A stretch of 64,000 bases of DNA from Candidatus Undinarchaeales archaeon (lineage in GTDB: Archaea; SpSt-1190; JASMDC01), in assembly GCA_030753015.1 (NCBI GenBank), contig JASMDC010000011.1:28844-92843 (forward strand). The letters are read 5' to 3'. The first letter of the stretch is position 1, and each line of letters begins with the position of its first letter. Below the pieces are notes generated by a model that saw only the letters and a program-made list of their open reading frames with translations, did not search any database and was not told the DNA's origin. Position numbers and translations under genes: made by a program. This document shows positions 28,264 through 54,832 of the stretch, in pieces.

Positions 28264-29403
28264 GTGGAGAGGATTAGCAACATAATCATTGTAGGAACGG
28301 CGCACGTCTCTGCCGACTCAATCGATGAGGTGCGTTCCGTGATCTCAAAGGAACGTCCTGGTGCTGTCGCCGTGGAACTGGACGAGAAGCGCTACAAGTC
28401 ACTCGTTGAGGGAAAGGACTGGCGGAAGGAGCCCATCGCCGATCTTCTTCGCTCCGACCGGCTCTACATCGCCCTGGCCAACGCGTTGATGCTCGCTTTC
28501 CAGCGAATGGTCGGACAACGTGTCGGCAGCCGCCCGGGGGAGGAGATGCTGGCCGCGATCGAAGCGGCGAAAGAGGTGGACGCCGAGGTAGTGCTCGTGG
28601 ACAGGGACATCACCAAGACCCTTCGCCGGGCTTTGGACGAGATGAGCGTTAGGGAGAAGTACGGTATACTCAAGGAGCTGCTGTCCCCTGACGACGAGGT
28701 TCTCCAGACGGAGGTGGACGAGCTCCTGGAGACCTACAAGGACGCCAATGTCATCTCGGAACTTGTCGACCAGCTGCGTGAATTGTCGCCTGGCGCCCAC
28801 CGCGTGCTCCTGGCAGAACGGGACGCCTACATGGCACGTCGCATCCAGGCCGCGGCGAAGGACCGTTCAGTCGTCGCCGTGGTAGGCGCAGCTCACGCCA
28901 ACGGCATAGCCACTCACTTGCGCACCGAGGAGGAGATCCCGGAGGTCGAGATCGTGGAGCGCCGGCACTGGGGCCGCATGTTCCTGTACGCACTCCCCTT
29001 CATGTTCGTTGCCGTGTTCCTGCTGGCCATGCTCAAGGGAGTGGCCATCGGTCCAGAGCTCGGCCGGTGGGTGCTCATCAACGGTGCGCTTTCGGCACTG
29101 TGCACGCTGCTCGTGCGCGGGAGCATCCCTGCCATCGTCATAGCGTTCCTGGCCGCCCCAATCACGAGCCTCTCACCGTTCCTGGCCGCGGGATGGTTCG
29201 CCGGACTGACGGAGGCATGGTGGCGGCGGTTGACGGTGGAGGACCTGGAGGACCTGACGAAGATCGAGGATATGGACGATCTCATGGCCAATAGCGCCTT
29301 TCGCGTGCTCCTCGTGGGAGCTGCGGCGAACATAGGGAGCACCATAGGGACCTTCGTGAGCATCCCTGCAGTGCTCACTCCCATCCTCACAAAGCTAGGA
29401 TGA
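28264..29403 (+). CDS. TraB/PrgY family protein
   Basis: GTAHVS, VELD..R, PGEEM, ERD.YM and VVGAAH motifs; C-terminal TMs. Confidence 0.92.
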   Translation: MERISNIIIVGTAHVSADSIDEVRSVISKERPGAVAVELDEKRYKSLVEGKDWRKEPIADLLRSDRLYIALANALMLAFQRMVGQRVGSRPGEEMLAAIEAAKEVDAEVVLVDRDITKTLRRALDEMSVREKYGILKELLSPDDEVLQTEVDELLETYKDANVISELVDQLRELSPGAHRVLLAERDAYMARRIQAAAKDRSVVAVVGAAHANGIATHLRTEEEIPEVEIVERRHWGRMFLYALPFMFVAVFLLAMLKGVAIGPELGRWVLINGALSALCTLLVRGSIPAIVIAFLAAPITSLSPFLAAGWFAGLTEAWWRRLTVEDLEDLTKIEDMDDLMANSAFRVLLVGAAANIGSTIGTFVSIPAVLTPILTKLG

Positions 29404-50540: not shown

Positions 50541-51893
50541 GTGGGCACCAAGAGCGTGTTCCTCCGTGATGGCAAGGAGCACTACCGCAAAGGGGAGTAC
50601 GAGGAGGCCGCCCGGTTGCTGCGGACCGCCCTCCGCATCGAGCCTGATGCACCTGAGGCGCTCATCTACCTCGGTTTCGCCCTTGGGGAACTCGGGGACG
50701 AGAAGGGAGCGAAGCGGTGCTTCAAGCGCCTTCTCGAGTCCAATCCGGAGAACGAGGCGTACGATTACCTCGCCCTCTACTTCGCAGGCGAGGGGAAGTA
50801 CACCCGCGCAGAGATGGCCTGTCGTAAGGCCATCGAGAAGAACCCCCGGGATTGCGTGGCCTGGAACAATCTCGCCATCTGGCTCGTGGAGGAGAACAAG
50901 CACCAAGAGGCAGTGATGTGCTCCCGGATGGCCCTCTCCATCGACGACGCGCGAGCCGAGTTCTGGCTCAACCTCGGTGTCGGCCTGGCATCCCTCGGGA
51001 AATGGCAGGATGCACGTGAGGCATTCGAGCGGTCGGTCGGGATGCAGCCCGCTCTCATCGAGGGATGGCTCGACCTTGGCCTCTGCCTGCTACGGTCGGG
51101 GGACGTAGACGGGGCGAGGGCCGCCTACCACAAGGCCATTGAGGCCGATCCGAAGAGCGCCGATGCGCACTTCCACCTTGGCGCCCTCCACATGGAACGG
51201 CGGGAGCTCAAGGGTGCAGTCCAGCATTTCGAACGGGCCGTGGCCCTGGACGTGTCGTTCCGCGAGGCATGGCTGAACCTGGCCGTGTGCAGCGACGAGC
51301 TCGGGAAGCTCGACCGTGCCGTGGAGTGTGCCCAGATGGCCCTTGGGCTCGACGAGGAGGACCAACGCATGAAGAACCTCCTGGAGAGCCTGAAGGAAGC
51401 CGTTGACTTCCGACGGCGGCACGACCTGGTCGCGCCGGACGTGCTCGAGCTCATCAGGACCCATCTGGGCGAACGAGCACTGGCCGCGTTCCCGGTGCCG
51501 GACGATCCCGTTCCCATGGGCCGGTGGTTCTTCGTCATACCCCAGAAGGGGATGGGGGGAGATATAATCATCCCCCAGAGCAAGGGCGAGCTCTCGGCCG
51601 TGCTCGATGGCACGGTGGAAGTGGAGTTCCTCTGGTGCTGTGGCCTGCGCAGCACGCTGACCCGGGAGTACCTCCATCTCTACGACCTCCGCACTCGGGG
51701 GCGAGCGGTCTTCATCTGTCTTGTCTGGCAGGACATCTACGATCCTGCGGCAGGGCCCATTGCCGTCCGCGCCGAGATCGAGCGCACGCTCGATCTGCTA
51801 GAGAAAGATGCCGAGGGTGACATAGTCCTCGTCAACCACCTGGGCGATGTGTGGACGCGTATCGGAGACGGGTCCCCGAAGAAGCAGGGGTGA
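50541..51893 (+). CDS. TPR-repeat protein with unknown C-terminal domain
   Basis: About 8 TPR motifs (AW.NL, W..LG). Confidence 0.85.
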
Positions 51894-51920
51894 GCCGGTC
51901 CTGATGTGTCCGGGGATTAT

Positions 51921-52064
51921 CTAGAATGTGGTCAGATCTTCATCAGTAAAATGAGTGGAAGGTTCGACCTCCGGGTGTTCGTTCTCGTCGCTCGTGTAGT
52001 GTCGTAGGGTTGTGGAATCAATTGGCCGTTGGATGTTCATTGGGCCTGGTACTAGTGAGAGCAT
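51921..52064 (-). CDS. Small acidic peptide, 47 aa (not in ORF track)
   Basis: MLSLVPGPMNIQRPIDSTTLRHYTSDENEHPEVEPSTHFTDEDLTTF*; GGAGG SD; TATA-like TTTTAAGG near 52150. Confidence 0.55.
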   Translation of the reverse strand: MLSLVPGPMNIQRPIDSTTLRHYTSDENEHPEVEPSTHFTDEDLTTF

Positions 52065-52364
52065 TTCGCATCCCTCCATAGATCCATTTGTTTCGTTTTT
52101 CTTCTATGCGCGCCCTTTCGGGCGAGCGGTGGCCACGAGTCATGGTCGCCTTAAAAGGGTTGTCTTTCCGTCTGTCTTTTGACCGCACACCTTATGTAGT
52201 ATCGTAGGCGGTGTGCCGGGGATTACGAAATCCGTAACCGAGATACAGATGCTCTACGAGTAGTGCTGATGATCGTGATTTATTAATGTATAATACGGAC
52301 CGAACAGCATCTATGCTGACGGTCCTGCTGGGAAGAAAGCTCTCTCCGGGCGGGATAAGTTAGG

Positions 52365-52428
52365 AAAAAGGGGGGAACGGCCCCGCCACGATGACGGAGC
52401 CGTTGGGGGACGGGGTACGGATAAAAAA
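52365..52428 (-). ncRNA. Conserved 3' structured element, copy 1
   Basis: U6-AU-CCGUACCCCGU-C5-[13-bp stem with 2 GU pairs]-C6-U5. Confidence 0.6.
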
Positions 52429-52434
52429 GTAGGA

Positions 52435-52629
52435 TCAGTGATACGTTTCCTCCTGATTGTACGGGGTGTCCTTGTGGTCCTGCTCCCCGTACGTCGGATG
52501 CTCAAGCTGCTCGTTCCTGAATATATCGAGGTCCCCAAAACCCGGATCGAGTTCCGGCCGGGGCTCGGTGCCCAGCTCACCATGGGTGCGCTGGTACGCC
52601 TCGAACATTTCAGGATCGATGATGAGCAT
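52435..52629 (-). CDS. Small acidic peptide, 64 aa (IIDPEM family, copy 1)
   Basis: AGGTGA SD, CTTATAAA TATA; paralog of 52947-53138. Confidence 0.8.
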   Translation of the reverse strand: MLIIDPEMFEAYQRTHGELGTEPRPELDPGFGDLDIFRNEQLEHPTYGEQDHKDTPYNQEETYH

Positions 52630-52706
52630 CGCGTTCACCTTTTTTTTCGGACGGTTCTCACTCCATTGTTGGCCGGTTTATAAGGTTTTCCTTTGCCTGT
52701 GAGGCT

Positions 52707-52742
52707 AAATCGCACGAATATAGCTTAATTCGTCAAATTAAG
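52707..52742. promoter_or_regulatory. Conserved upstream block with palindrome CTTAATT-N5-AATTAAG, copy 1
   Basis: 24 bp identical to 53214-53237. Confidence 0.75.
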
Positions 52743-52874
52743 TAATAATAAGGGTTATTAGCCGTGCGTTCAGACCGCACATTTATGTGATACGACCTGC
52801 CATTGGAACGGTCCCTCCTAACGCCGCTTTAACACATCGCCGTGAGATACAGCTCACACATGGGGATGATAGGG

Positions 52875-52937
52875 AAAAAGGGGGTATCGATCCCGCCGGA
52901 GAGGCGGGATCGATGGGGGGACGGGGTACGGAAAAAA
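52875..52937 (-). ncRNA. Conserved 3' structured element, copy 2
   Basis: U6-CCGUACCCCGU-C6-[12-bp perfect stem]-AC5-U5. Confidence 0.6.
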
Positions 52938-52946
52938 GAATGATAT

Positions 52947-53138
52947 CTAATATTTGTCGAGGTCCTCTTCGGGCTGGTAGACAGGCTCCCAGTAACCCTT
53001 GACGACGTAGTCGTTCTCGGACCGGTCGAAGGGATTGTAGTTACCGAAGCCCATGTCCAGGATGGTGTTAGGCTCGGCGCCTACTACCCCATGGCTTGCC
53101 TGATAGGCATCGTACATTTCCGGATCGATGATGATCAT
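52947..53138 (-). CDS. Small acidic peptide, 63 aa (IIDPEM family, copy 2)
   Basis: AGGTGA SD, TTTATAAA TATA; paralog of 52435-52629. Confidence 0.8.
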   Translation of the reverse strand: MIIIDPEMYDAYQASHGVVGAEPNTILDMGFGNYNPFDRSENDYVVKGYWEPVYQPEEDLDKY

Positions 53139-53213
53139 GATTGTCACCTGCTTTATTACCAAGAGCGCCCCATCGAATACCTGTTTATAAACTTTACTAT
53201 CGCCTGTGCGCCC

Positions 53214-53269
53214 AAATCGCACGAATATAGCTTAATTAACTAAATTAAGCCTTATTAAGCCTTATTAAG
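53214..53269. promoter_or_regulatory. Conserved upstream block with palindrome CTTAATT-N5-AATTAAG, copy 2, plus tandem CCTTATTAAG repeats
   Basis: Seen directly in the sequence. Confidence 0.75.
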
Positions 53270-53485
53270 ATTCTTGGCTTTCTAATTCCCTCTGCAGGGC
53301 TGGTTCAGTACATTTCTCCCCCCTATAGGACCTCGTTCGGACCGCATACTTCGATGTACTACATAATGTGCTCGACTATAGGGCATGTCTTCAGTACAGC
53401 GATTATTACGTGCTTGATGGGGTTCCCAACCGCTCTGACTACGTGAAAATAGCGACGAGTCCTGCGACTGTTAAATAGGTGTTAA

Positions 53486-53507
53486 CCGGGGGGGAGGTCC
53501 CCCCCGG
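53486..53507. terminator. GC hairpin immediately 3' of the tRNA
   Basis: CCG7-AGGT-C7GG. Confidence 0.6.
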
Positions 53508-53508
53508 A

Positions 53509-53583
53509 TGGGCCCGGCAGGATTCGAACCCGCGATCTGAGGCTCCGCAAGCCCCCATGCTATCCAGACTACACCACGAGCCC
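53509..53583 (-). tRNA. tRNA-Arg(GCG), intronless, CCA not encoded
   Basis: Acceptor GGGCTCG/CGGGCCC; anticodon loop TTGCGGA; T loop TTCGAAT. Confidence 0.95.
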
Positions 53584-53697
53584 ATAAAGGCTTGACTCCC
53601 GAGTGGGCAAATCTTTATTTATCTTCCCTCGCTGCCCGTCCAAGCCGAAACCCTTAAAAGAGCTATCCACTCCACAGTCGCCTACGAGTGATATAAC

Positions 53698-53805
53698 TTG
53701 TCGAAAACATCCCATCCTTGGAAGAAGCGGGTCGGCAAGAAGAGCCGCTGGAAGTGGCGCAAGAAGCGGCGCCGAAAGATGCAGCGCAAGGCGCGCCGCA
53801 TCTAG
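53698..53805 (+). CDS. rpl41e: Ribosomal protein eL41 (eS32), 35 aa (not in ORF track)
   Basis: TTG start; MSKTSHPWKKRVGKKSRWKWRKKRRRKMQRKARRI; GAGTGA SD and TATA. Confidence 0.8.
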   Translation: MSKTSHPWKKRVGKKSRWKWRKKRRRKMQRKARRI

Positions 53806-54088
53806 AAGCACCGATGCTACCTCGTTCTAGCCATACGACGAACGAGCGAGGTATTTGTTGGCGCCAGTGGCTCACTACAATATACACACATCTGTACTTC
53901 TAGGTAGGATGTAGTTGTCTGCTCACATGTTGGCGTAGATTAGACCTCTGAATCCAGTTGACCCAAACTGAGATCTATAGATTAGACAATCAGTCAAGTC
54001 CCCAGGTCCGCAACGGGAGCGCACGTCGAAAGGAAAACTATAAAAGACAGCATTCGGGCCTCCGCGCTCCATACGCAGAGTGATTATC

Positions 54089-54832
54089 ATGGAAGACATC
54101 ATCGAAACGGAATCTATCGAGATCTACGATGTACCTGGCCTGAACACCTATGTGGTGGCGGAGCCGCGGATGGAGCCCCCCGGATACTTCAGCAAGGGGC
54201 CGACCTACAAGGACGTCCTTCACTCACTCAACGACGCGCTCGAACAGGATGACGCCTCCTATACCCTCTACACCGACTCAGGATCCACCTACGATATCAA
54301 CGAACTACGCACTTTGTCCAAGAACACACAGGATTCCGCTGTAGCTAAGATAAAGAGCGATGCTTTCGGAGCTGCCATCTGGGGCTACTTCCTTTACCCG
54401 TATGGTCTGGTCGTCTCCGCCATGGACGCCATCGACGCGTTCAAGTCCTACAAGCTCATGAAGGAGGGTCAGCGCCTTGAGAAGAACATCGTCAAGGGCC
54501 ATGTCGAGAAGTCCGAGGGCCTCTCCGAGCTCCACGAGCTGTACAACGAGCTCGACATACCCAGTATCGATGCTGAAATCCAGCGGGAGATCGGCCAGCT
54601 CAGCTTCTTCCGAAAGATCGTCCCACCCAAGGATGTCAGGGAGCGGATCATGGACAAGGTGGCCGAGAAGTCCCTTGCCTACCAAACGCTCAACATCCGC
54701 GCTCGCGAAATTGCTGAGGAGCTGGATGACGAGAACTTCCTTTACGTAGCGCAGGCCTACGAAAAGGCCGCTCATGGCCACCACTTCCCCATGATCGGCG
54801 TGCAACGGGAGCCCGAACAGGAAGAGCAGTAA
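54089..54832 (+). CDS. Acidic orphan protein with a central hydrophobic segment
   Basis: GAGTGA SD, CTATAAAA TATA. Confidence 0.7.
   Translation: MEDIIETESIEIYDVPGLNTYVVAEPRMEPPGYFSKGPTYKDVLHSLNDALEQDDASYTLYTDSGSTYDINELRTLSKNTQDSAVAKIKSDAFGAAIWGYFLYPYGLVVSAMDAIDAFKSYKLMKEGQRLEKNIVKGHVEKSEGLSELHELYNELDIPSIDAEIQREIGQLSFFRKIVPPKDVRERIMDKVAEKSLAYQTLNIRAREIAEELDDENFLYVAQAYEKAAHGHHFPMIGVQREPEQEEQ

Follow-up and report, generated by a model that had tools for sequence, protein, structure and literature searches.

Three short open reading frames (ORFs) follow one another downstream of a tRNA gene in a Candidatus Undinarchaeales archaeon: are they genes, and if so, what might their products do? The locus lies on contig JASMDC010000011.1 of assembly GCA_030753015.1, between positions 28,844 and 92,843. 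This stretch of 64,000 nucleotides is referred to here as the window, and all coordinates are those of the whole window. In archaeal genomes, small proteins systematically escape notice. A sequence-only reading of the window had described three minus-strand ORFs of 47, 64 and 63 amino acids beside tRNA-Arg and had suggested an undescribed peptide family, possibly of precursors resembling those of ribosomally synthesized and post-translationally modified peptides (RiPPs). All three ORFs are present at those lengths, on the minus strand: gene B (52947..53138, 63 amino acids, product P0002), its paralog gene A (52435..52629, 64 amino acids, product P0001), and gene C (51921..52064, 47 amino acids), which encodes a separate small acidic protein. 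We regard it as all but certain that A, B and C are genuine small-protein genes native to this genome and that A and B form an undescribed, very narrowly distributed family.

Coding evidence

The genes of the source genome (G000, 3.85 Mb, in which the window lies on contig C20) were compared with their counterparts in a sister species of the same genus (G001). Nei-Gojobori counts were evaluated by a binomial test against the neutral expectation, and all six frames were compared. Gene B showed 13 synonymous and 2 non-synonymous changes (dN/dS 0.03, P = 4.1e-8); its tail of 28 residues contained 5 synonymous changes and no non-synonymous change. The bias in gene A lies in the N-terminal codons, where residues 1-35 had 6 synonymous changes and 1 non-synonymous change (dN/dS 0.04, P = 7.4e-4). 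Gene C had 14.7 synonymous and 13.3 non-synonymous changes (dN/dS 0.19, P = 4.5e-4), with 9.5 and 2.5, respectively, in its first 20 codons (dN/dS 0.05, P = 6.2e-5). The start of gene C was set at the second ATG, at 52064, because the in-frame ATG upstream at 52079 is missing from the sister species. For each gene the annotated frame was the best of the six, and the antisense frame that shares the wobble position came second, as expected. Synonymous bias, which the sequence-only reading had proposed to look for, is strong in this comparison.

The ORFs could be suspected to have arisen by chance within a regulatory or RNA region that is itself conserved, or to be remains of a longer, decayed gene, as ORFs of 47-64 codons are frequent by chance and conservation is equally high in the non-coding DNA that flanks them. 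This is contradicted by the data, and we give it practically no credence. Substitutions favour the third codon position (11 of 15, 12 of 19 and 17 of 28), the sense frame is uniquely favoured, and the single indel of gene C relative to the sister species is 3 nt long and in-frame. Relatives in independent assemblies also keep the frame. As to decay, which the earlier reading had raised against itself, no longer homolog or parent gene was found among 1.84 billion proteins.

Native origin of the locus

The order of the locus is the same in the sister species: GluRS, a 250-amino-acid ORF, tRNA, B, A, C and a gene for a TPR protein, with 85% identity over the 2.6-kb region. The array thus exceeds chance: in the sister species its ORFs are conserved, keep their synteny and show purifying selection. 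The upstream neighbour, tRNA-Arg with anticodon GCG (53506..53584, minus strand; ARAGORN; Rfam tRNA 55.4 bits), is 97.5% identical to the sister copy. It lies on the same strand as the array, and the ATG of gene B is 368 nt downstream of it, in keeping with the placement downstream of tRNA-Arg that had been noted before.

This adjacency, together with a G+C content of 47-57% at 51.9-54.9 kb versus about 63%, and with the small, acidic nature of the proteins, would suit cargo of a mobile element that had inserted at tRNA-Arg, with the array encoding, for example, anti-defence or DNA-mimic proteins. The data contradict this explanation as well, which we regard as very improbable. The 3' end of tRNA-Arg is not repeated on contig C20 beyond the gene itself, and no integrase family was found among the 22 ORFs that were scanned with Pfam between 36.7 and 63.7 kb (three flanking ORFs and 19 further ones). 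The G+C content at third codon positions is 0.74 in gene A and 0.75 in gene B, compared with 0.73-0.86 in neighbouring genes and 0.52 in gene C. These host-like values in A and B attribute the low G+C content to intergenic DNA and amino-acid composition. The locus is shared with the sister species, and PHROGs gave nothing for A, B or their distant relative P0007 (described below), and only sub-threshold matches for gene C (E 0.14), a second distant relative, P0006 (E 0.33), and the 250-amino-acid ORF (E 0.34). Two scans of viral contigs confirmed none of 73 and none of 13 pattern matches as relatives.

Tandem duplication and regulatory DNA

Genes A and B arose via tandem duplication of a unit of about 510 bp that holds promoter, coding sequence and terminator. 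Four repeat families (D1-D4) place the two copies at a start-to-start distance of 507-511 bp with 70-84% identity. The duplicated parts are the promoter-like region, the Shine-Dalgarno (SD) motif, the N-terminal 35 codons, and a terminator composed of a T-run, a hairpin and a second T-run. A repeat unit of 570-590 bp, as previously estimated, was not recovered; only the distance between the starts of A and C (565 bp) comes near it. No other copy of any part of the unit was found in the 3.85-Mb genome.

Each unit runs from an AT-rich tract through a 24-nt box, a TATA-like box and an SD-like GGTGA to the coding sequence and the 3' element, all on the minus strand. The AT-rich tract of unit B (53244..53269) contains TTAAT-type boxes with a periodicity of 10 bp (Tandem Repeats Finder: period 10, 2.6 copies, 100% matches) and is kept in the sister species; a degenerate counterpart in unit A was noted by eye only. 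The 24-nt box, AATTAAGCTATATTCGTGCGATTT, is 100% identical over its 24 nt between unit B (53214..53237) and unit A (52707..52730), while the DNA around it is only about 75% identical. In the sister species both copies bear the same single T>C change, which indicates concerted evolution.

The TATA-like and SD-like elements were read directly from the sequence. In unit B the TATA-like box TTTATAAA (53184..53191) lies 45 nt before the ATG and is invariant across all four A/B units of both species. The corresponding box of unit A, CTTATAAA (52677..52684), is 47 nt before the ATG, and that of unit C, CTTTTAAG (52150..52157), is kept in the sister species. The SD-like motif is GGTGA in unit B (53144..53148, 5 nt before the ATG and kept in the sister species) and in unit A (52635..52639), and GGAGG in unit C (52073..52077). 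Each of the three genes therefore has its own TATA-like box and SD-like motif, in agreement with the sequence-only reading, and each also has a downstream T-run.

The 3' element consists of T6, a C-rich stretch, a hairpin of 12-13 bp, a second C-rich stretch and T5. In unit B (52875..52937) the T6 run is at 52932-52937, the 12-bp hairpin at 52886-52914 and the T5 run at 52875-52879. The hairpin has a folding energy of -23.8 kcal/mol (z = -5.9), and none of 200 shuffles folded as well. In unit A (52365..52428) the T6 run is at 52423-52428, the 13-bp hairpin at 52376-52404 and the T5 run at 52365-52369. Its hairpin gave z = -1.4 in the source genome (18 of 200 shuffles as good) and z = -3.3 in the sister species (0 of 200). 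The stems of the two hairpins differ in sequence and agree in architecture, and the elements of units B and A are 94% and 93% identical, respectively, to those of the sister species. Promoter and terminator flanks together are 92-94% identical between species; the synonymous sites of the TPR gene are less conserved (proportion of synonymous differences, pS, 0.33).

Separate regulation of the copies had been proposed. The upstream regions of A and B are duplicated and nearly identical, including the 24-nt box without a mismatch, and therefore point to common rather than separate control.

Another motif, TGCGGTCYGAACG, occurs once upstream of each unit on the minus strand, at 53334-53346 (B) and 52767-52779 (A). 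These are 2 matches in the window compared with 0.05 expected, and the duplicated unit includes the motif. Gene C is preceded by a looser form, TGCGGTCAAAAGA.

Transcription

Marine or seawater metagenomes account for all 20 listed runs in which the DNA stretch was found; these come from 11 studies, and eight of them may represent the source sample. The only RNA run, X20, is a metatranscriptome depleted of rRNA, and its sample is the one sequenced as DNA in run X4. Within 51700-54000 it yielded two contigs only, at 52925-53072 over gene B and at 53697-53886 over a gene resembling that of ribosomal protein eL41. The former covers the 3' two-thirds of gene B and ends at 52925, 7 nt past the T6 run. 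Of the 30 bins into which the stretch was divided, DNA runs X4 and X9 had depth in every one and X18 in 15. The patchy cover in X20 favours transcription of gene B over DNA carry-over, and the RNA-library contig over gene B speaks against the absence of transcription that the earlier reading had named as a refutation. No RNA contig of X20 fell on gene A, gene C or the tRNA, which is not evidence that they are silent.

The A/B family and its module

A and B share their N-terminal half, as previously noticed: BLASTP aligned them with 22 of 48 residues identical (E = 2e-15), and none of 2000 shuffles reached this score. Past residue 35 they are not significantly alike (1539 of 2000 shuffles reached the score). 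A profile built from four A and B sequences was searched against 1,835,955,588 representative proteins of all lengths and gave four matches: B, a variant of A (P0005), P0006 (67 amino acids, E = 6.6e-5) and P0007 (58 amino acids, E = 5.3e-4). The last two are distant metagenomic relatives that align over residues 1-25 only, in accord with the earlier description of a conserved N-terminus with divergent tails. The same four proteins were recovered when the 7-sequence alignment was used in a word-indexed search.

The module of 25 residues reads M-[LI]-I-[IV]-D-P-E-[ML]-[YF]-x-x-Y-Q-x-[TS]-[HG]-G-x-[VL]-G-x-E-P-[RN]. Eleven columns of the 7-sequence alignment are invariant: M1, I3, D5, P6, E7, Y12, Q13, G17, G20, E22 and P23. 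In the tails, short Tyr motifs (YQPEED, YNQEE, YQPVHD and YLPEG) were seen by eye in acidic or Pro-rich context. Three tail-to-tail pairs scored marginally above shuffles (49-111 of 2000 shuffles reached the score), and the others did not (1311-1539 of 2000).

The family is narrowly distributed. In their own genome A and B match only each other, and the source genome and its sister species are the only 2 carriers among 17 genomes of the phylum that were examined. The other 15 (0.6-1.2 Mb, 72-94% complete) gave a sole match with E = 0.445, inside a 245-amino-acid frame. Scans of genomes, metagenomes and viral contigs added only the sister species and chance motif matches. Pattern matches L007-L010 from the genome and metagenome collections were rejected as chance, lying inside unrelated ORFs of 337, 200 and at least 108 amino acids.

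The undescribed status that had been suggested for the family was borne out. A and B had no match in Pfam or NCBIfam (0 families at E up to 5-10), in PHROGs or in the PDB sequence profile search, and the ESM Atlas returned no usable match for either query. In the available parts of the literature there was nothing on the A/B family, only work of a general nature on small proteins, disordered proteins or Undinarchaeota. As a sequence family A and B are new; their kind, that of lineage-restricted small disordered proteins, is known in general terms, and no new mechanism is demonstrated.

A conserved N-terminal module followed by divergent tails also brings to mind a precursor of a RiPP or of a peptide cofactor, in which the module would be a leader for an unlinked maturase and the Tyr/Asp/Glu-rich tail the core. 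The leader-like conservation extends to P0006 and P0007, all eleven invariant columns fall within residues 1-23, and the copies are multiple and separately transcribed. Candidate enzymes exist elsewhere in the genome, with 6 SPASM matches above the cut-off and 1 match to the PqqD domain. None of these is on contig C20, the PqqD match being on contig C37 at 274 bp from the contig end, and YcaO had 0 matches in the genome. Among the 22 ORFs scanned at 36.7-63.7 kb there was no family of maturases, RiPP recognition elements (RREs), proteases or exporters, so the earlier remark that no obvious maturase is adjacent holds. Furthermore, no described leader family, Nif11 and NHLP included, was matched in NCBIfam or Pfam, the tails lack Cys, and GFG, a possible shared cleavage motif, is present in A and B only and missing from P0006 and P0007. 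The size of 58-67 amino acids and the fully conserved 28-residue tail of B suit a protein better than a short core. We therefore consider a precursor function unlikely, and the RiPP-like interpretation of the sequence-only reading is not supported.

A more specific form of this idea, that A, B, P0006 and P0007 constitute a new archaeal class of ribosomal peptides whose module is read by an unlinked enzyme, e.g. of the radical-SAM SPASM type, and whose tail is modified, appears quite unlikely to us. If true, it would be the first such peptide system in this archaeal lineage, without the usual Cys, Ser or Thr chemistry.

Gene C

The third ORF had been thought to echo the C-terminal half of the other two. 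Protein comparisons of C with A or B were at chance (471 and 1446 of 2000 shuffles reached the score), and with no significant similarity to either, C does not qualify as a member of the family. Homology at the DNA level was likewise rejected as chance (71 and 37 of 500 shuffles; 80 and 90 of 500). MAFFT aligned the promoter of C with those of A and B, and shuffle tests gave this alignment no support. The relatives of gene C are close ones only (P0008-P0010, 71-87% identity). It is best treated as a separate gene for a small acidic protein that happens to continue the array.

Taken together, the ORFs, the tRNA, the shared N-terminus of A and B and the promoter motifs described by the sequence-only reading stand, and the unit size and the third-ORF echo do not. 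In its interpretation, the undescribed family with conserved module and divergent tails is retained; RiPP-like precursors, separate regulation and a third member are not.

Proposed role of the A and B proteins

Tyr, Pro, Asp and Glu are abundant in the products of A and B. Their isoelectric points are 4.31 and 4.05 and their net charges -12 and -10, respectively. Neither contains Cys; A has 4 Tyr and 6 Pro, and B has 7 Tyr and 5 Pro. AlphaFold2 on a 4-sequence alignment gave a mean predicted local distance difference test (pLDDT) score of 50, with helices at residues 6-16 and 25-29 only. From this model A and B are probably unstructured and mostly disordered. The N-terminus does not read as a signal peptide.

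The architecture of A and B suggests that they are native disordered small proteins whose N-terminal module docks on a common partner and whose tails add a second function. We assign this reading a probability of roughly 0.4. The products would be cytoplasmic, intrinsically disordered and strongly acidic. The invariant module, predicted as a short hydrophobic strand and an amphipathic helix, would dock onto one common partner, and the paralog-specific acidic tails rich in Tyr and Pro would provide the second function, different in A and B, for example by covering a basic surface or by competing with nucleic acid. The shared upstream 24-nt box would place A and B under common control, and we propose on this ground that they are switched on together.

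Several points weigh against this proposal. A conserved N-terminus with variable tails is equally expected of a leader/core precursor. The docking partner and the product are predictions. The assignment of disorder depends on a 4-sequence alignment, a setting in which AlphaFold2 is weak whatever the true fold. The tail of gene A evolves fast, with 3 synonymous and 9 non-synonymous changes relative to the sister species (dN/dS 0.57). RNA support consists of one 151-nt contig from one run, which shows neither strand nor transcript ends and might, strictly, stem from DNA carry-over in X20. Finally, the family occurs in too few genomes (2 of 17) for co-occurrence analysis. A complex prediction of B (alignment A3) with the TPR protein (450 amino acids) gave a score of 0.00 (mark 0.32) and is evidence neither way.

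The extreme charge and predicted disorder would also fit proteins that are produced in large quantity and act in bulk without a partner, for instance as cation buffers or as polyanions with a protective or chaperone-like effect. The depth of the gene B contig in X20, 11.2 versus 7.8 for the eL41-like gene, could be taken in its favour, contig depth being a poor measure of expression. Against this stand the 11 module positions that are invariant in distant relatives and the absence of non-synonymous changes in the tail of B, which both indicate sequence-specific constraint and not composition only. Such a bulk role is, in our view, distinctly improbable, and we retain the docking model as the working interpretation.

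Neighbouring genes

The neighbours scanned at 36.7-63.7 kb are housekeeping or unrelated genes, among them QueC, an RNase_H_2-superfamily protein, the convergent TPR protein, the divergent 250-amino-acid ORF, GluRS, Toprim, a class-I W/Y tRNA synthetase (TrpRS/TyrRS-type), a HAD hydrolase and an FG-GAP family protein. The TPR gene was placed at 50541-51893 because an upstream stop in the sister species excludes the longer ORF. Its C-terminal domain of about 150 amino acids (51444-51890, plus strand) is 84% identical in the sister species and is matched by none of the Pfam families listed (25 of 39); AlphaFold2 on a 2-sequence alignment of the C-terminal 149 amino acids gave a pLDDT of 38.7.

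The ORF at 54089-54832 (plus strand) encodes 247-250 amino acids, is 93% identical in the sister species and has a hydrophobic stretch near residues 92-118. It matched no family in Pfam, NCBIfam or PDB. Its N-terminus (IIETESIEIY...VVAEPR) shows, at the same position, a loose likeness to the A/B module, with a BLASTP E of 2.0 and an hhalign probability of 0.13% (E = 0.45). This likeness is unproven, with 93-578 of 1000 shuffles reaching the score, and the DNA inverted repeats I1 and I3 represent the same weak match.

Divergent from the tRNA, at 53698-53805 (plus strand), is an extremely basic ORF of 35 amino acids that starts with TTG (LSKTSHPWKKRVGKKSRWKWRKKRRRKMQRKARRI). The sister species has the identical amino-acid sequence, and the second RNA-library contig covers the ORF. 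Nothing matched it in Pfam or NCBIfam, and all four of its PDB sequence matches were to ribosomal protein eL41, weakly (E 0.24-5.1). It is probably an unannotated eL41 gene. Directly after the 3' end of tRNA-Arg, at 53485-53505 (minus strand), lies a G/C palindrome, CCGGGGGGGACCTCCCCCCCGG, which is found in the sister species with a 1-nt indel and may be a processing or termination hairpin.

Host and significance

The two genomes of the host genus are 3.85 and 3.6 Mb in size, about 99% complete, with 5% contamination and 60% G+C; as given above, the other 15 genomes of the class and phylum examined are several-fold smaller. In the available text of its description, Candidatus Undinarchaeota is a phylum with small genomes (PMC7414124). 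The host is either a large-genome, possibly free-living relative of a DPANN lineage or the result of a placement or binning problem. Its lineage-specific genes may bear on what distinguishes this marine genus of 3.6-3.9 Mb.

Comparative evidence by itself established three small proteins as real, and RNA supports one of them in situ. The bipartite layout of A and B, an invariant module with fast-diverging acidic aromatic tails, is a clear and testable design. Without a function, they amount to an orphan family, well documented, rather than to a new mechanism.

Comparison with known systems

PqqA and MftA are also small peptides, their cores use Tyr, and they carry important Tyr and acidic residues near the C-terminus. 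Unlike A and B, they are 20-40 amino acids long, and their operons also encode a radical-SAM enzyme and a PqqD-like chaperone; the only PqqD match here sits on another contig, at its end. Prochlorosin and Nif11-type precursors resemble A and B in being several small genes, each transcribed on its own, with a conserved N-terminal and a divergent C-terminal part, and their enzyme is not necessarily adjacent; prochlorosin precursors lie far from their own enzyme. In contrast to these, A and B match no leader model of NCBIfam or Pfam, have tails without Cys and no double-Gly site shared by the family, and are not near a LanM-type or other maturase.

Pup is similar to A and B in size (about 64 amino acids), acidity and disorder when alone, and it binds and folds on its partner. 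A and B differ in matching no Pfam or PDB entry and in having an archaeal host. Modifiers of the Pup and SAMP type end in GG, GGQ or GGE, whereas the C-termini of the family are ...DKY, ...TYH, ...ITV and ...PYQ, and that of gene C is ...TTF.

The characterised small regulatory proteins of archaea such as Methanosarcina mazei have no known homology to A and B, which are far more acidic and form a tandem pair with a shared N-terminal module. Like A and B, they are lineage-restricted, shorter than 70 amino acids and expressed from their own promoters, and they bind enzymes or transporters via protein-protein contact.

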